Positions 1,817-57,020 of a DNA stretch of 64,000 nt are shown piece after piece. Both the position numbers and the translations under genes were made by a program. Below the pieces are notes generated by a model. That model worked only from the letters and a program-made list of their open reading frames with translations, had not been told where the DNA came from and searched no databases. Origin of the DNA: Carcharhinus amblyrhynchos (Eukaryota); assembly GCA_965287045.1 (NCBI GenBank), contig OZ336873.1, positions 52,018,001 to 52,082,000 of the forward strand. The letters run 5' to 3'. Numbering within the stretch: the first letter of the stretch is position 1; each line of letters starts with the position of its first letter.

Positions 1817-3215
1817 TCAGTAAGTAGTCTCACAACACTAGGTTAAAGTCCAACAGGTTTATTTTGGAAACACGAGCTTTCAGAGCACTGCCCCTTCATC
1901 AGCTGAGTGTAGGATTTGTTTCACAAACAGGGCATATATAGAAACAAACTCAATTACAATATAATGGTTGGAACGCGAGCCTGAACAAATAATCAAGTCT
2001 TTACAAGTACAGACAATATGAGTGAAGAGCGGGTTAAGCACAGCTTATAGAAATGTGAATTGTCTCAAGCGAGGAAAGTTAGTGAGACTTCGCAAGCCCA
2101 GGCAAGTTATGGGGGTTACAGATAGTGTGACATGAACCCAAGACTCTGGTTGCGGCTGTCCTCATCTGTGCGGAACTTGGCTATCAGTTTCTGCTCAGCG
2201 ATTCTGCATTGTCGTGTGACGTGAAGGCTGCCTTGGAGAATGCTTACCTGAAGGTCAGAGGCTGAATGCCCGTGATTGCTGAAGTGTTCCACAACAGGAA
2301 GAGAACATTCTTGCCTGGTGATTGTCGAGCAGTGTCCATTCATCCATTGTTGTAGCGTCTGCATGGTCTTGCCAATGTATGACGCCCCGCAACATCCTTT
2401 CCTGCAGCGTATCAGTTAGACAATTTTGGCCGAGTCACAAGAATACGTACTGTGTACCTGGTGAATGCTGAATCACGTGAGATGATGGCATCCATGTCAG
2501 TGATCCAGCATGCCTTGCAGAGGTTCTGTGGTAGGGTTGTGTGGTGTTGTGGTCACTTTTCTCCTGAAGGTTGGGTAGTGGTGGTGTAGGGATGACCTCG
2601 GCGAGATGTTCGTCATCATTGGTGACATGTTGAAGGTTCCGGAGAAGATGTCGTAGCTTCTTCGCTCCGGGGAATACTGGACAACGGAGGGTACTCTGTC
2701 TGCCGTGTCCCGTGTTTGTCTTCTGAGGAGGTCTGTGCAGTTTTCACTATGGCACGTTGGAACTGTCGATCAATGAGTTGAGCACCATATCCTGTTCTTA
2801 CAAGGGCATCTTTCAGTGTGTGTAGGTGTCTGTTGCGATCCTCCTCATCTGAGCAGATCCTCTTTGTACAGAGAGCTTGTCCTTAGGGGATGGCTTCTTT
2901 AATGTGTTTAGGGTGGAAGCTGGAGAAGTGGAGCATCATGAGGTTATCTATGGGCTTGCGGTACAGTGACCATCCTTGATGGAGATGTGTGTGTCCAAGA
3001 ACGCAATCGATTCTGGAGATAATCCATGGTGAGTCTGATGGTGGGATGGAACTTGTCAATTAGTTGTAGTACTTGTAGAAACTACTTGTAGTAGCTTCAG
3101 TGATTGTTCGCCATGAATCCAAATGAAGAAAGTGTGATCAGTGTATCTAGTGTAGCGTTGGTTGACGGTCCTGTGGTGAAGAAGTCTTGTTCGAACCAGT
3201 GCATGAAAATGTTGG
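1817..3215 (-). mobile_element. 5'-truncated, decayed Penelope-like retroelement (RT thumb + GIY-YIG endonuclease + 3' pLTR region)
   Basis: Minus-strand remnants MLHFSSFHPKHIKEAIP (RT thumb) and ORF 2116-2364 (PVVEHFSNHGHS...ILQG...RIAEQKLIAKFRT, typical of the GIY-YIG C-terminus). The 3' end AATAAACCTGTTGGACTTTAACCT recurs in the copies at 21461 and 56670. Confidence 0.85.
1871..1909 (-). ncRNA. Minimal hammerhead-ribozyme-like motif in Penelope 3' end
   Basis: Reverse complement reads cactcag-CTGATGA-a-ggggc-agt-gctct-GAAA-gc-TC-gtg. Core boxes are intact, stem II has 5 bp, and a palindromic AGCT replaces stem III. Stem I is weak in this copy. Confidence 0.6.
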
Positions 3216-4436: not shown

Positions 4437-5196
4437 CATAAGAACATAAGAAATAGGAGCAGGAGTAGGCCATCTAGCCCCTTGAGCCTGCCCCGCCATT
4501 CAATAAGATCATGGCTGATCTGTCGTGGCTCAGTTCCACATTCCCGCCCTCTCCCCATAACCCTTAATCCTCTTGCCTATCAAAAACCTATCAACCCCTG
4601 TCTTAAATATATTTAGCGAGGCAGCCTCCACCACTTCAACGGGCAGAGAATTCCAGAGATTCACCACCCTTTGAGTGAAGAAGTTCCTCCTCAACTCCGT
4701 TCTAAACCGCCCCCCCTTTTTCTTGAGGCTGTGCCCTCTAGTCCTACTGTCCTTTCTGAGCGGGAAGAGTCTCTCCACCTCTATCCTATCCATCCCATTC
4801 ATCATCTTATACGTCTCAATGAGATCTCCCCTCATTCTTCTAAACTCTAACGAGTACAAGCCTTGTTTATTCAGCCTCTCCTCATAGTTCAACCCCCTCA
4901 ACTCCAGTATCAGCCTAGTAAACCTCCTCTGCACTCCCTCCAAGGCCAAAATATCCTTGCGTAAGTGCGGCGACCAAAACTGCACACAGTACTCCAGCTG
5001 CGGCCCCACCAGTACCCTGTACAGTTGCAGCAAGACCTCCCTACTTTTATATTCAGTCCCCCTCGCTATGAAGGCCAGCATCCCATTTGCCTTCCTGACC
5101 ACCTGCTGCACCTGTAGGCTGGGTTTTTGCGAGTCATGCACAAGGACCCCGAGGTCCCTGTGCGTCGTCGCATGCTGCAGTTTTTCACCATGTAAG
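4437..5196 (-). mobile_element. Young CR1-clade LINE, 3' ~760 bp, inserted in the tail of an L2-like element
   Basis: ORF 4530-5231 carries CR1 RT C-terminal motifs (RDLGVLV, LEYCVQFWSP, RGHSLK, FFTQRVVNLWNSLP). It has a (CATAAGAA)n 3' tail. Confidence 0.93.
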
Positions 5197-19545: not shown

Positions 19546-21460
19546 ATGCAAATATAGTAAGCATTTGTACCAAAGCTTCGCTAGCAATAGACCATAAGAC
19601 ATAGGAGAAGAAGCAGGTCATTCAGCCCATCAAATCTGCTCTGCCATTCGGAGAGATCATGACTGATCTGAAATAATTCCCAGGATTATCTGTTAATGCA
19701 AATAGGCAGGGGAGGTGTGAGTGACTATTAGTGCATAGAAATTACCACACAAAAATGGGTCATTTAATTCCGCAGCCCCTGTTTAAGTTGATGTGTGTTG
19801 TCTCTTGTAAAGAACAGAATTACTCCAGTTTAAGATTATCTGTGAATATTATTTTCAGTAAACCACACTTTTATATAAATCTTCCTGTATATATTTTGTT
19901 AAATTCACAAGGCGTGATCATGGAGAAACTGGTGAGTGACAGGAAATTGACAAAGTACACAAAGATTTAGCAGCCTGTTTAATGCCACATTGTCATCTGA
20001 GGCTGTTATTATAAAGTAACAGGAACAGTAGTGAGGTGAGCAAAGACTTTAAGGTAATACTTCCTATGAAGGATGAAAGCATTTTCTGATTCCATGTTCC
20101 ATATTACTCATTCTTTGTACAGAAACATTCTGAATCTTGGCTCTCTCTTTCTCTCCTTTCCTTTTCCCTTGCCACCACCACTCAGACCTCGGTACACTGC
20201 CAGAGTGAGCTAACCTGCACAGTTACTGCACACAACCCAATTTAATTAAAACCATCACAACTGGGGTTCAGATCCCCATCCCAAAGCCAGCACTTAGCAA
20301 AACTCTCTTGATTGAAGATGTTCTCCTGCATTGAACTTGTTTGAATCCATGGCCTGAGAGGTATGGTTTTACTAGGTCAGGAGTTAATAACACTGATATA
20401 CTTCTGCAGATCCAGCTCCCTTTCTGGATGGGAGGATGAAGGTAATCATCTTCTAACTGACCTGTAGTTTGACTGTATGCATGAGAACCAATTGTGTGAA
20501 GAAGCCGTTTAGGTGATCTGCAACACAGACCAGATCTATGCCCATTAGCAATCCAGCTTATTGAATCAGAGCTTGTGATCTTGTTCATGTTGTGTCCTAT
20601 AAAGCCTGCTCTATGGAAAGTTGGGTTGATGAATTGTGGGTTGCTTACAGAAGAAGCACATGTAAATATAGTACCGGCTCATCCAGAGGCATCTTGTTTG
20701 CCCCGTCATAGATAATGCAAATGTAAATGAAGATAAACCCTCCATTAGCCCTTACCTGAGACCCCTTACCTTTATTTTGGAGTAGCTGTCAGCCATGACT
20801 CTGGAAGTACATTGATATTTATGGGGGTTGGCTGTGTGCAATTGCTGCCTCTTTTATATTCTTAATAGTGACTACAGTTTACATTCTTATTTACTGCAAA
20901 GCACTTTGGAACAGCTGAACGTTGTGAAGGACACAATGTAAATGCAAGTTTGACTTTTCTTTTTGCATTGGTGTTCTGGGAAGTGGTGGCTTTAATTTGA
21001 GCCTGCGATCTAAGAAATAGATTTTTGATTTCCTGTTCTCATTGACCCTCGTTCCCCAATTCCCACTTCCCTCTCTACCTGTTCCACAAAACACTGGTAA
21101 GAGGAAGTTAATCATTCAGAATCAAGGCATGTTGACTGCTGAAGCACTGTTGTACTTAACTGCTCAGGGTATAATCCACACCATGTCTTTGGTGGAATCG
21201 AGTGTAGTACCATTTTAAGGAAACTTGTCACCTTATCATGTTTCCCAAATGCACCCCAAAGTTTCTCACAGACAGCTAACTGATTTGAAATCTAGAAACC
21301 ATTCGGCAAACACAGCAGTCATGTTTCTGCAGCGTAGAAATGCCAACAGCAGTGAGGTAGATGGCCAGTCAATCTGCCCTGTGTGGTGTTGTGTGAGGGA
21401 GCAATGAAACAAAGAGAAGTTTCTGTCGTGAGTGTTGTGAGATTTTGGCATACATCTGCA

Positions 21461-21852
21461 CACAGTAAGAAGTCTCACAATACCAGGTTAAAGCCCAACA
21501 GGTTTATTTGGTTGCACAAGCCACTAGCTTTTGGAGCACAGCCACTTCATCAGGTGACTGGGAGTTCTGGTCTCCAACAGGGCATACAAAGACACAAACT
21601 CAATTTACAAAATAATGAGCTAAAAATAAAGCTAGTGGCTTGTGCTACCAAATAAATCTGTTCATTATTTTAGACATTTGAGTTTATGTCTTTATATGCC
21701 CTGTTTGAGAACAGAACTCCCACTCACCTGTTGAAGGGACAGTGCTCTGAAAGCTAGTGGCTTGTGCTACCAAATAAACCTGTTGGACTTTAACCTGGTG
21801 CTGTGAGACTTCTTACTGTGTTTATCCCAGTCCAATACTGGCACCTCCACAT
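21461..21852. mobile_element. Fold-back (inverted) Penelope 3'-end element inserted in a Deu-domain SINE
   Basis: cacagtaagaagtctcaca...aactcaa (21461-~21615) is the reverse complement of cattattt...gtgagacttcttactgtg (~21663-21820). The flanks at 21220-21460 and 21855-22020 are SINE sequence. Confidence 0.85.
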
Positions 21853-22362
21853 CAGACATCTGAACAGACAGAGTCTGGGTTCCGAATTTCACCTGTCAGT
21901 AGCATCTCTGACCATGCCAGAGTCAGTAGTTCATTGCGGGTCAGCATCATTTTTGCGCTGAAGTCTGATACTGGGGCATAACCCCGAGCCTGTCTGAGGT
22001 GTCAGAGTACTATCTGAGCCATGCTGACACTTCATCCAACAACAAGCACACTATCACTCACCTCTGAGTAAGTTACACAGTGTGTCTGTACCAGTGAAAG
22101 TGTGTAACACAGTATCCAAATGAATAATCGGGAACAGTGGAAAATTGGACTTGATCTAGTGTTCTCTGCTATGGTTAATACTCCTACAATTGTCAGAAAT
22201 GTTGCAGATTGTTCAATGCTATGACCGTACTGCCTTCCTTGGAGAGTCAGTGATTAAGGGCTGTACAGTTATGAGCCATTGATGATTTTCTCATTGTTCA
22301 GTCACACTTTTCTCAGCGATGGACCAATTCCTGTTGTGACTGATTAGAATAACTCAAATGAA

Positions 22363-24348
22363 GTTGGAAAAAAAAGACATTTATTGTCAAAGCTTTTCAA
22401 CTTGCACTCAGGACAATTGCAAGAATAGCAATGTAAGGGGAATCAACAAATTTATAGTGTATGAGAAGAAAGTGCTGATTGGTTGACAAGTGGAGTCTGA
22501 TTTGTGGAGGTATTGCCATGGAGAATGCACCTGTTGAGGATGATTGACAGTCAATTACCATCCATTGTTTGAAATTTAAATCAGGCACTTTGTCTCTGGT
22601 CAAGGCATTTCCGTGAGGAATGAACCAGCAAATGGCTGTCACTTATTTTGTTTAGATGAAACTGACACAATTTATATATGTGTTGTTTATGTCTGCAAAG
22701 AACAAAGCCCTATATATTAATATATGTAGCTTCTAGTATACACAGATGTCTCTCACTGTGAACCTTACTGACAATCTTAAATTAGTTGTCAGTGTAATTT
22801 TTAGCACATGGATGATTATTTAGCAAATGTTGTCCACTCTCAGAATCATAAGAACATAAGAAATAGGAGCAGGAGTAGGCCATCTAGCCCTTCGAGCCTG
22901 CCCCGCCATTCAATAAGATCATGGCTGATCTGTCGTGGCTCAGTTCCACATTCCCGCCCTCTCCCCCTAACCCTTAATCCCCTCTCTTATCAGAAACCCA
23001 TCAACCCGCGTCTTAAAAATACTTAGCGAGGCAGCCTCCACCACTTCAATGGGCAGAGAATTCCAGAGATTCACCACCCTTTGAGTGAAGAAGTTCCTCC
23101 TCAACTCCGTTCTAAACTGTCCCCCCCTTTATCTTGAGGCTGTGCCCCCTAGTCCTACTGTCCTTTCTGAGCAGGAAGAGTCTTTCCACCTCTATCCTAT
23201 CCATCCCATTCATCATCTTTTATGTCTCAATGAGATCTCCCCTCATTCTTCTAAACTCTAACAAGTACAAGCCTAGTTTATTCAGCCTCTCCTCATAGCT
23301 CAACCCCCTCAACTCCGGCATCAGCCTAGTAAACCTCCTCTGCACTCCCTCCAAGGCCAAAATATCCTTGCTTAAGTACGGCGCCCAAAACTGCACACAG
23401 TACTCCAGCTGCGGCCTCACCAATGCCCTATATAGCCGCAGCAAGACCTCCCTACTTTTATATTCAATCCCCCTCGCTATGAAGGCCAGCATCCCATTCA
23501 CCTTCCTGACCACCTGCTGCACCTGCAAGCTGGGTTTTTGCGACTCATGCACAAGGACCCCGAGGTCCCTCTGCACCGTCGCCTGCTGCAGTTTTTCTCC
23601 ATGTAAGTAATAAAAACTTTGGGTCACATCAAATGTGCGACACAGTTTTTTGAGTTTTGCAAGCATGGATTGATCGGGTATGGGCTGTACCTAGTCTATC
23701 GCAGACAGTAGAAGAGCATGCTGTTTGATGTGATCTTCCTGTTACTTGGACGGATTGTATGAAACAGTATATCCCTTCACTGTTCACAATAGGAAAAGTA
23801 CAGCTTATACACAACTAGTCCGTGCTTGCAAACCTCAAAACATTGTGTTCAATATTAGATGTGATTCTGAGATTGGACAACATTTGCTAAATAATTCTTA
23901 GTCTACTAAGAATTACACTGACCACTAATTTAGGATTGTCAGTCAGACTTGCAGTGTGGAGCATTTCTGTGTACTGTAAGCTACATATATTAATACACAG
24001 GGCTCTGTCCTTTACAGACAGAAGAAACATAGGCACATATTGCATTTGATAAATCTAAACAAAATAAGTGATAGCCATTCACTAGTTCATTTCTCAGGGT
24101 AATGCCTTGACAAATCAGACTCCAATTGCCTAGTTTAAATTTCAAACCATGCTTGGCAGTTAATTATCAGTCACCATTAACTGGTGCATTCTCTGTGGTA
24201 ATGTCTCCACCAATCAGAGTCCACTTGCCAACCAGTCAGCACTCTCTTCTCATAGTATAAATTTGTTGATTATCCTTGCACTGTTTTTTGCGAAAGTCTT
24301 GATGAGTGCAAGTTAAAAAGCTTTGACAAATGTGTCTATTTTTTCAAC
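22363..24348. mobile_element. Second-family Penelope-like element as a ~600-bp-arm inverted repeat (centre ~23743), left arm interrupted by CR1
   Basis: 22363-22847 plus 23624-23735 is the degenerate reverse complement of ~23750-24348. The right arm shows decayed GIY-YIG C-terminal coding remnants (IGQHLLNN...KNYTD...ATYINTQG.VL.RQK). Confidence 0.85.
22847..23613 (-). mobile_element. Young CR1 LINE 3' ~766 bp
   Basis: ORF 23220-23666 motifs are near-identical to the 4437 copy; (CATAAGAA)n tail. Confidence 0.93.
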
Positions 24349-25702
24349 AAAACTTATAATTATTAAATGACCTTGAGGATGAATTTGTTCAATAGAAAAT
24401 GGACCTCGTATTGACTATGTATTTTCAAATAGAACCTGATAAAATCCAACATCCATATCATTAGAGTTCCAAAGGTAGGCTTTACATTATTTTGTAGATT
24501 AACTCTTGTGCTTGAATAGAATAAATACATGAGCTTTGACCTACGAGAGCAAAATGAGCCACAAATTAGAGTTCCGTATTCAAGATTTGAAATCTTGTTC
24601 TAAGTTGTGAGAATTTAAACCATCTGGCAAGCTTATGATTGTATTTTGTTTTAATTATTCACTTTTTTGTATATCCTTCCATGGTATCCCATCAGCCGAT
24701 CTATTCCTGAAACAATGATTCTTTTAAGCAGCAATATTGAATTAAAATGAGCAGAAACACTGGGTGAAAGGAGTGATAGCAAAGCAGGGAAGGGGAATGA
24801 TGCTGCTTTAAGCACTCAACAAAGCACCATTTGGTATGTTTGAGTGCCACTTGGTTTGCATTCAAGTGGCCTTTTATTTGCATCTTGAAAGGAATACCAA
24901 GCACAAGGTTTGGCCGGGTGACCAATTGGAACCGTCTCAAGCATGAAGTTGCTGCCTCCAACTGGCATCCCATCCAACAATCAAAAGATCCAATCTCCCA
25001 ACCGAGCTTAGACTAAGCAGGTCACATTCTGAACTGCAGAACATCACTTCCCATCGGAGCAGCCAGCTGGCATCTGTTCAAAGTCTCGATCTAATGTGAA
25101 GTATCCCTGCTCGATGATGAAGATTGGGTTATGGGAAGGACAGATCAGTGGAAAATTCTATTCATTAGCTCACCAGACATACAAACCTAAGTTCAACTGC
25201 ACAATTCTCAAGGAGAGGATTTTTTTTGTTCCGAAAACTGACAAACGTACATGAATGGCCAAGATCTGTAACTGCAGGAGATTTAAAAATTTGGTGAAAT
25301 GAATGATGAAGCTGAGGTTAGTTGACCACAGGCTTGTGTTTTTAAAAACTACAAGAGGAAACAGATGGAATTGAGGTTCCCTAGCTCAAAAGTTTGAGGA
25401 AAGAATGTGTGGTGGGGTATAGAGCTGTAAGTGTCGATTGAAATGAAGTTTGCAAGAAGGAAAAGTGCATTTTAAAAAATACGCTTGTTCCTTCAACACT
25501 GGGATCAATCGCATTCTGATGAAAACAGAGATGGGTACTATAAACCTGTGTGGGTAAAGTTGAATTTTTGACAAAGGTGGTCATGTTCTGCTTTGGTTTT
25601 CCCAACTGATGAACATTTAGGAAGATTATAGCTTCAAAATGCAACAGGAACCACAAATGGGAACAAAACCATGTCAGTAACCCATTTAAAAACTAGCATA
25701 AA

Positions 25703-29042: not shown

Positions 29043-29169
29043 TGGTACCACAGATCAAATATCCTCTATCCGTACATTTGAGAACCGAAAGCATCCAAAA
29101 ACTGAACATTTTTCTGATGGTTATGCCGTTAATTTTAATGTTAATAAAGCAATATGATATATTACAGGT

Positions 29170-29680
29170 GTGTGGAGGGTGATGACTGAAGTCTACACGG
29201 TGATTGGTGTGGGGAGGATGATGACTGTAGTCTGCAGGTTGTTTGGTGTGGGGAGGATGATGACTGTAGTCTGCAGGTTGTTTGATGTGGGGAGGATGAT
29301 GACTGTTGTCTGCAGGTTTGATGTGGGGAGGATGATGACTGTAGTCTACATGGTGATTGGTGTGGGGAGGATGATGACTGTAGTCTGCAGGTTGTTTGAT
29401 GTGGGGAGGATGATGACTGAAGTCTACACGGTGATTGGTGTGGGGAGGATGATGACTGTAGTCTGCAGGTTGTTTGATGTGGGGAGGATGATGACTGTAG
29501 TCTGCAGGTTGTTTCGCGTGGGGAGGATGATAACTGTAGTCTACAGATTGTGGGGAGGATGATGACTAGTCTGCAGGTTCATTGATGCGGTGAGGATGAT
29601 GGCTGTAAACTGCAGGTTGATTAGTGTGGGGAGGATGATGACTAGTCTGGTGCGGGATTTAGTTGGTATGGAGAGGATTA
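29170..29680. repeat. 39-bp minisatellite, ~13 copies (consensus gtggggaggatgatgactgtagtctgcaggttgtttgat)
   Basis: Tandem units are visible directly and degenerate at the 3' end. Confidence 0.95.
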
Positions 29681-32271: not shown

Positions 32272-32613
<342 letters not shown>

Positions 32614-41983: not shown

Positions 41984-42450
41984 ATGAGGGGGTTGAGCTA
42001 TGAGGAGAGGCTGAATAAACTAGGCTTGTACTCGTTAGAGTTTAGAAGAATGAGGGGAGATCTCATTGAGACGTATAAGATGATGAATGGGATGGATAGG
42101 ATAGAGGTGGAGAGACTCTTCCCGCTCAGAAAGGACAGTAGGACTAGGGGGCACAGCCTCAAGATAAAGGGGGGGGGGGTTTAGAACGGAGTCGAGGAAG
42201 AACTTCTTCACTCAAAGGGTGGTGAATCTCTGGAATTCTCTGCCCGTTGAGGTGATGGAGGCTGCCTCGCTAAATATTTTTAAGATGCGGGTTGATGGGT
42301 TTTTGATAAGAGAGGGGATTAAGGGTTGTGGGGAGAGGGCGGGAATGTGGAACTGAGCCACGACAGATCAGCCATGATCTTATTGAATGGCGGGGCAGGC
42401 TCGAAGGGCTAGATGGCCTACTCCTGCTCCTATTTCTTATGTTCTTATGT
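41984..42450 (+). mobile_element. Young CR1 LINE 3' ~465 bp, inserted into a minus-strand Deu-SINE (~41810-42540)
   Basis: ORF 41984-42184 is near-identical to the copies at 4437 and 22847 but in the opposite orientation; tail cttatgttcttatgt. Confidence 0.93.
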
Positions 42451-56669: not shown

Positions 56670-57020
56670 AGGCACAGTAAGAAGTTCCACAACATCAGGT
56701 TAAAATCCAACAGGTTTATTTGCTCCTTCACCAGATGAGCGGAGAGCTGGGTTCACAAATACGGCATATATAGGCAGAGACACAATTGCAAAATAATGGT
56801 TGGAATGCGGATCTTTATAGATAATCAAGTCTTTGCACGTACAGAGAATGCGAGTGGAGAGAGGCATAATCACAGGTTAAAGAGGTGTGAATTGTCTCAA
56901 AGCAGGACAGTTAGTAGGATTTTGCAAGCCCAAAGTTTGTGATTCCAAATAAACCTGTTGGAATTTAACCTGATATTGTGAGACTTCTTACTGTGCCCAC
57001 CCCAGTCAAACGCCAGCACA
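56670..57020. mobile_element. Penelope 3'-end fragment with inverted terminal copy
   Basis: ggcacagtaagaagt...caacaggtttatttg (56670-56721) inverts caaataaacctgttgg...cttcttactgtgcc (56946-56997). The interior matches 1890-2100. Confidence 0.85.

Follow-up and report, generated by a model that had tools for sequence, protein, structure and literature searches.

Results

The locus and its host gene

The window analysed here, a 64,000-nt stretch of the Carcharhinus amblyrhynchos genome, carries exon 3 of a G-alpha gene (142 nt, 32397-32538, plus strand) which, from its peptide motifs, we take to be GNAO1-like. Exons 1 and 2 are located about 53 kb upstream of the window. The element examined here resides within the ~85-kb intron 2, between exon 2 and exon 3, in agreement with the initial annotation that had placed it in the GNAO1 pre-mRNA. 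Judged by sequence comparison, the locus is an old and decayed two-armed Penelope-like insertion that was later split by a CR1-type LINE.

The left arm is inverted (minus strand) and, by comparison with its family, has two parts. The outer part (22351-22848) is a 5'-truncated Penelope-like copy running from family position ~630 to the 3' end; the inner part (23624-23752) is a remnant of the GIY-YIG coding region (family ~501-632). The right arm (23749-24356, plus strand) is a 5'-truncated sense copy of family positions ~514-1124 without tail, made up of a C-terminal GIY-YIG remnant to a stop at ~24071 and then the 3' UTR/pLTR. Both arms meet head to head at 23740-23752. There, folding predicts an 8-nt loop (23740-23747) on a 4-bp stem, and in the family alignment a GG(A)CG overlap common to both arms (23748-23752) joins them at family positions ~501 and ~514, positions that are blurred by several nucleotides, the copies being ~15% diverged from the family majority. 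The central loop of 15-20 nt claimed previously is not borne out by the folding.

With the LINE sliced out, left-arm segments 22367-22846 and 23614-23729 were aligned with the reverse complement of 23759-24345. Of the 604 columns 454 matched, 125 mismatched and 25 held a gap, which amounts to 78.4% identity (454/579 ungapped columns), and the score of 593 compares with a best of 40 in 100 shuffles. The arms align over most of their length, and the description of two ~600-nt reverse-complementary arms holds. Self-comparison of 21500-25200 gave two inverted matches, one between 22367-22848 and 23862-24345 (489 nt at 77.7% identity, E 1e-106) and one of 23624-23864 with itself.

Both arms derive from one Penelope-like family

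The 2.92-Gb genome was searched with the right arm as a query. This gave 5,770 first-look candidates; the 40 that were scored had 74-78% identity. At 28 other loci homology ended sharply just past the hammerhead end and faded gradually past the position of the hairpin centre, the pattern of a 5'-truncated retrotransposon. Accordingly, family copies have a fixed 3' end, a variable 5' truncation and an optional tail. Translation of the family majority sequence yielded an RT-thumb-like segment and GIY-YIG-like motifs, in this order, followed by a stop, about 230 nt of UTR and the hammerhead. The family profile covers ~830 coding nt and reaches the RT thumb region only. A stop-free ORF piece from one copy (L024) matched GIY-YIG (PF01541) protein-atlas clusters at 0.94 in 13 of 30 matches; 51% of the members of the best such cluster are GIY-YIG (PF01541). 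Thus, majority sequence and ORF piece display the C-terminal GIY-YIG downstream of RT that characterizes EN+ Penelope-like elements (PLEs). Pfam HMM scans of three decayed single copies had no GIY-YIG match, decayed ORF pieces matched neither GIY-YIG nor RT in Pfam, and a homolog search among longer proteins returned nothing, which is weak evidence. Scored protein matches in the genome numbered 150, every one of them decayed.

Against the family majority each arm has 84-86% identity. The family has two subfamilies. Paired arms were concordant by inspection, and both arms of this locus carry the marks of the commoner one, so they do not come from different subfamilies. Taken together, both arms are 5'-truncated copies of a single Penelope-like family extending from the GIY-YIG coding region to the 3' end. 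The fixed 3' end, the GIY-YIG cluster matches and a minimal hammerhead in the family uphold the Penelope-like assignment of the initial annotation. In passing, the family 3' UTR contains a ~57-nt direct repeat (79%; here 24075-24130 and 24174-24229) with CCAAT boxes, seen in many copies.

A CR1-type LINE has split the left arm

The insert is the 3' end of a 5'-truncated CR1-type LINE on the minus strand (22849-23623), located between TCA triplets at 22846-22848 and 23624-23626. Its identities to three other copies in the window are 94, 86 and 96%, the copy at 4437-5196 being the one with 94%. The insert ORF resembles clusters named 'RNA-directed DNA polymerase from mobile element jockey-like'; the cluster comparison gave a jockey-like RT only, and CR1 is a putative name. 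Because 11 extra nucleotides adjoin the insert in the left arm and orthologous contigs of related organisms resume at 23624, the insert is delimited to 22849-23623. The presence of a CR1 had been recognized correctly; its right end had been put at 23613, 10 nt short of the true end.

The LINE was missing from orthologous contigs of relatives in runs X19, X20 and X22 (three of four runs, two studies; run X23 had no contig over the hairpin centre). In these contigs arm sequence replaces the LINE to the left of ~23624-23631 (an opposite-strand joint to 23858-23865). Therefore, the CR1 is younger than the hairpin, as had been proposed, and is absent in those relatives.

Decayed minimal hammerheads at both outer ends

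A hammerhead-like motif had been reported at each outer end, and both were found again. The left one (22384-22416, minus strand) is a decayed minimal hammerhead in which 3 nt of the CUGAUGA core are deleted; it is antisense to the host pre-mRNA. The right one (24294-24329, plus strand), sense in the pre-mRNA, carries C3>U and G12>A next to mismatches in stems I and II. G12 has a role in hammerhead catalysis. Neither motif of the locus retains an intact core, and both putative ribozymes are broken in the catalytic core. Changes at C3 abolish cleavage in PAc, a PLE of Anolis, as described in PMC11167929.

The family motif consists of a helix I strand, CUGAUGA, a helix II of 2 bp with a 5-nt loop, GAAA, AGCU, UC and the second helix I strand. 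The motif that had been reconstructed by combining the two arms equals this majority sequence, which is derived from other loci. Likewise, the CUGANGA/GAAA/UH core in the family columns agrees with the reading as a minimal type I hammerhead. The palindromic AAGCTT that replaces helix III, and that would allow dimers, is present in the family and in both arms. The 33-nt motif had 90 exact matches in the genome compared to none for a reversed control. Core columns were counted in 72 arms that had been chosen independently of the motif; the core was intact in 19 of the 60 that were scorable. Two variable dinucleotides showed CpG decay; from 36 TG, 14 CA and 4 CG an ancestral CpG at 11.1-G12 can be inferred. 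The core was better conserved (91% against 85%). This was rejected as a sign of selection: the core columns are A-rich and the CpG column of G12 had been left out.

Rfam covariance searches up to E = 10 detected no hammerhead family, neither in 21500-25200 nor in a well-kept copy (L054). Matches to miRNA families at 21525-21756 stayed below gathering scores and reflect only the neighbouring hairpin. Single hammerhead motifs had no stable fold (z -1.1 to +1.0).

The minimal hammerheads of PLEs described by Cervera and de la Pena (2014; PMC4209133) share with the family type I topology, the CUGANGA/GAAA/UH core, G10.1-C11.1 and a palindromic 15.2-16.2/loop 3. Differences are helix II (2 bp and a 5-nt loop here, 6-8 bp in the examples of that paper) and an unpaired base between A9 and 10.1, which the family lacks. 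According to this source metazoan PLEs carry dual hammerheads ~100-700 bp apart on opposite strands, and activity of the minimal forms is low and dimer-dependent. Compared with those hammerheads, both copies at this locus are core-broken and on opposite strands, so that a dimer between them is impossible.

Three side observations concern this region. In the 3' strand of helix II both arms have an A>T change (22400-22402 and 24313-24314) that is otherwise rare, with 3 occurrences in 149 other arms; this suggests that the source RNA of the arms may already have had a 1-bp helix II. At three loci inverted arms start at family 1060-1067, just before helix I and not at the cleavage site (L015:1208-1286, L020:899-971, L046:779-846). 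A tiny palindrome (L065:2427-2586) has both arms starting in this same interval just ahead of helix I. The sample containing these starts was biased by the motif search.

Two-armed copies are frequent in the family

We examined 118 selected copies, viz. 28 top BLAST loci from among the 5,770 candidates and all 90 exact motif matches; two rows (L001, L012) were dropped as being this locus. An inverted partner on the 5' side was present in 40 of the 118 (12/28 top-BLAST, 8/30 and 20/60 motif-matched copies), which supplies the fraction of fold-back-shaped copies that the initial annotation had called for. Partners abutted within 45 nt in 28 of the 40. On the 3' side, where 1.5 kb was examined, an inverted partner was found at 1 of 58 loci (1/28 and 0/30); for the last 60 motif-matched loci only 300 nt were covered on that side.

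Among 29 abutting pairs, including this locus, centres differed from locus to locus and the lengths of the two arms were uncorrelated (rho 0.12, p = 0.53). This indicates that the hairpin is not a mobile unit. Centres symmetric within 25 nt were seen in 6 of 29 pairs with this copy (2.9 expected, p = 0.047), a value which includes a case picked for its symmetry; without it the excess was not significant (5 of 28 against 2.9, p = 0.13). The two-armed shape is ordinary and already published for PLEs, and with its length and symmetry the present copy stands at the extreme of a frequent by-product. With about one third of the sampled copies two-armed, such elements likely supply intronic inverted repeats to this genome in bulk.

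The closest published counterparts are insertion units of EN+ PLEs (Pen2a_Av, PMC3846280; scheme in Figure 2 of PMC8557442). As depicted there, they share a head-to-head inverted 5' copy with 3' ends pointing outward, a tail on one end, a C-terminal GIY-YIG, a hammerhead in the terminal repeat and a short target site duplication (TSD) around the whole unit, the latter seen here in other two-armed units of the family. Compared to those units, the locus lacks a full ORF and a direct pLTR, both arms are stubs of considerable and nearly equal length (600 nt) that begin inside the endonuclease region, and the tail of the family is ~23-26 nt instead of the 30-40 nt quoted in these papers.

One sampled locus (L021:1253-2061) is built differently. 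Unlike in the units with duplicated arms, its arms are adjacent and non-overlapping (family 263-403 inverted, then 409-1078). This arrangement resembles twin priming of the L1 type.

Kinship of the arms, tail and target site

In 38 pairs, arms were closer to each other than unpaired copies over the same columns, by 1.9 points on average (Wilcoxon p = 0.0013). The pair at this locus was 77.8% identical compared to 75.6 ± 2.4% for unpaired copies (89th percentile). Rare shared changes over all pairs numbered 52 against 30 expected, a figure which finer subfamily structure could inflate; L005 was left out of this sum (partner 1 kb away and of the other subfamily). At this locus there were 5 rare shared changes against 1.8 expected; the total of 13 shared changes was inside the range of unpaired copies (3-20).

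The family tail adds ~23-26 nt to the proximal end. Both ends could be scored in 35 two-armed units. Of these, 26 carried the tail on a single arm, none had it on both and 9 lacked it; the 9 include this locus, as counted before the ortholog evidence given below. L097 (flank cut by the locus end) and nine units with one arm short of the hammerhead (L005, L018, L021, L033, L039, L042, L072, L078, L115) were excluded from the tail and TSD counts. Exclusivity of the tail was significant at a score threshold of 18 (Fisher p = 0.0007) and at 17, 20 and 22 (p = 0.002-0.005), and weaker at the lax thresholds 15-16 (p = 0.06). Among the 26 one-tailed units, the longer arm was the tailed one in 11 and the shorter in 8, and 7 were near-symmetric; the shorter arm thus bears the tail in 8 of 19 asymmetric units. 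Mutual exclusion of the tail between arms, independent of arm length, bears on the origin of the inverted ends of PLEs and of their one-sided tail. A caveat to these counts is that tails can be lost later, as happened at this locus. Relatives in runs X20 and X23, and not X19, have 19 more nucleotides behind 22350 which, as reverse complement, agree by eye with the tail of the family at 16 positions out of 19; in the present genome these are deleted at 22350/22351, between short AACTCA repeats. The left arm therefore once had a tail, most of which was lost in this genome. The right arm was tail-less in all three DNA runs.

Repeats flanking the 26 one-tailed units scored higher than mismatched pairs (mean 11.8 versus 7.0, p = 4e-6). 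They exceeded the 95th percentile of the null in 7 units, and those of L007, L020, L025 and L081 are 12-15 nt long. In L007, L008 and L099 the flanking repeat abuts the tail-less longer arm; consequently, later loss of a tail is no explanation in these cases. At this locus a 17-nt candidate TSD (22344-22361 and 24354-24370) scored above 300 random flanks and above 198 of 200 shuffles. The relatives place its left copy partly within the 3' end of the element itself and the deleted tail, for which reason the candidate was rejected.

Discussion

Origin of the two arms

Probably the unit was made in one event in which both cut target strands primed reverse transcription close to the RNA 3' end. 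The steps can be outlined as follows, all of them inferred. The enzyme of the element would cut both strands of an AT-rich target with a stagger of ~12-15 nt. With one RNA or two sister RNAs as template, one end would prime at the distal start site, yielding the tail, and the other end at the proximal one. Both cDNAs would end prematurely, at this locus ~13 nt or less apart and perhaps at a broken RNA end that they shared. The two cDNA ends would then be joined via a few bases of microhomology and the host would fill in. The hammerheads would be passengers of the 3' repeat. Most likely the unit today is neutral intronic DNA.

Twin priming of L1 offers a known parallel. There, cDNA is primed from both nicked strands of the target, and microhomology joins the products head to head; the second priming is internal, so that the arms are different parts of the RNA. 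In the present family, in contrast, the two arms begin alike at the 3' end and repeat one sequence. A biochemical precedent is the Poseidon PLE of Anolis (PAc; Frangieh et al. 2024, PMC11167929). In vitro its protein cleaves and extends both strands, and the tail is defined by the two sites where it starts. The likeness extends to two adjacent 3' end points defining a tail, a hammerhead just upstream of them and AT-rich landing sites; in the account given there two-strand extension is not tied to inverted copies. Our search of open literature listings found no paper that states two-ended priming for the inverted ends of PLEs, whose cycle is 'still undefined' according to PMC8557442.

The initial annotation had termed the unit a fold-back product, and self-priming on an antisense template has already been proposed (Arkhipova et al. 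2013, PMC3846280). At this locus cDNA synthesis would have proceeded from the tailed left end to family ~501, the cDNA would have folded on the 4-bp stem and copied itself to a point short of the tail. This copy alone fits such a snap-back equally well: its two halves mirror each other almost symmetrically over ~600 nt, the loop measures 8 nt, the GG(A)CG overlap is present, and its arms have more rare changes in common than expected. That the tail sits on the arm that is longer by ~13 nt and that stem and loop are as a snap-back leaves them is the weak point of two-ended priming here. Across the family the evidence points the other way. In a snap-back the shorter arm is a copy of the longer one and cannot hold a tail which the longer one lacks, and a hairpin cut of fixed polarity would always tail the same arm, contrary to the 11 longer and 8 shorter arms observed. 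Tails on the shorter arm in 8 of 19 units, together with tails on both arms in 0 of 35, argue against a simple fold-back and favour two-ended priming. In addition, with uncorrelated arm lengths most 'loops' would span hundreds of nucleotides, and the excess of symmetric centres hinges on a copy picked for symmetry. We consider a snap-back less likely than two-ended priming at this locus; as a general mechanism fold-back is not supported, since across two-armed units the shorter and the longer arm are tailed about equally often.

It is highly improbable that two independent insertions, or a later inverted duplication via DNA repair, made the hairpin by chance. The identity of the two arms is inside the range of unpaired copies and no TSD is assignable at this copy, as such an origin would allow. 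Yet inverted partners are found almost exclusively on the 5' side, paired arms are concordant in subfamily, the tail is one-sided, and both arms stop at the element's own 3' end without duplicated host flank. We give equally little credence to the view that the hairpin moves as a unit in its own right (MITE-like or bounded by ribozymes) or was retained because its dsRNA serves the GNAO1 pre-mRNA, for instance in editing or delay of splicing. The predicted duplex (see below) includes 4 helices of at least 20 bp, at least three related organisms also carry the unit, and G.U-compatible mismatches number 46 on the pre-mRNA strand and 33 on the opposite one, a difference that by hand estimate is not significant. 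Against this stand the absence of the same centre at any other of the 118 loci, arms as decayed as unpaired copies (85-86% identity to the family majority), the CR1 that landed in one arm, two broken ribozyme cores and 7 other inverted pairs of at least 100 nt in the window, one of them 96% identical.

Returning to two-ended priming, we tentatively suggest that head-to-head Penelope insertions may come from one enzyme dimer that primes both cut strands on a single RNA, one subunit per start site. If true, this would explain the inverted copy and the one-sided tail in one step; near-perfect palindromes such as the present one would arise when the polymerases run off the same broken RNA end. The published explanation by self-priming would then be replaced.

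Duplex potential in the host pre-mRNA

Folding of the plus strand predicts 503 arm-arm pairs in 63 helices, the longest of 28 bp, with or without the CR1. The predicted arm duplex may plausibly be an editing substrate in the pre-mRNA. One presumed RNA run had no coverage on the unique flanks, which speaks neither for nor against expression or editing. Nothing shows selection on the hairpin, considering decay as in unpaired copies, a LINE in one arm and seven other pairs in the window. Two CR1 copies (22847-23311 and 41985-42449), 96% identical, in opposite orientation and 19 kb apart, flank exon 3; this pair is a more perfect potential duplex than the Penelope arms. Further CR1 partners are at 4437, 25703 and 31102.

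Other repeats in the window

A second, unrelated hairpin (21460-21821) lies 530 nt upstream. It is 82.5% self-inverted over 366 columns, has hammerhead-like cores of another family and an internal duplication of 35 nt (21628-21662 and 21750-21784), and likely is another two-armed PLE unit. Relatives of it are present at 1818-1966, 56673-56798 and 56937-57010; in one of them an intact-looking hammerhead core (CTGATGA...GAAA...TC) is seen at 1902 (1870-1910, minus strand). Finally, a 39-nt minisatellite at 29167-29643 has 12.5 copies with 83% matches and open frames on both strands.
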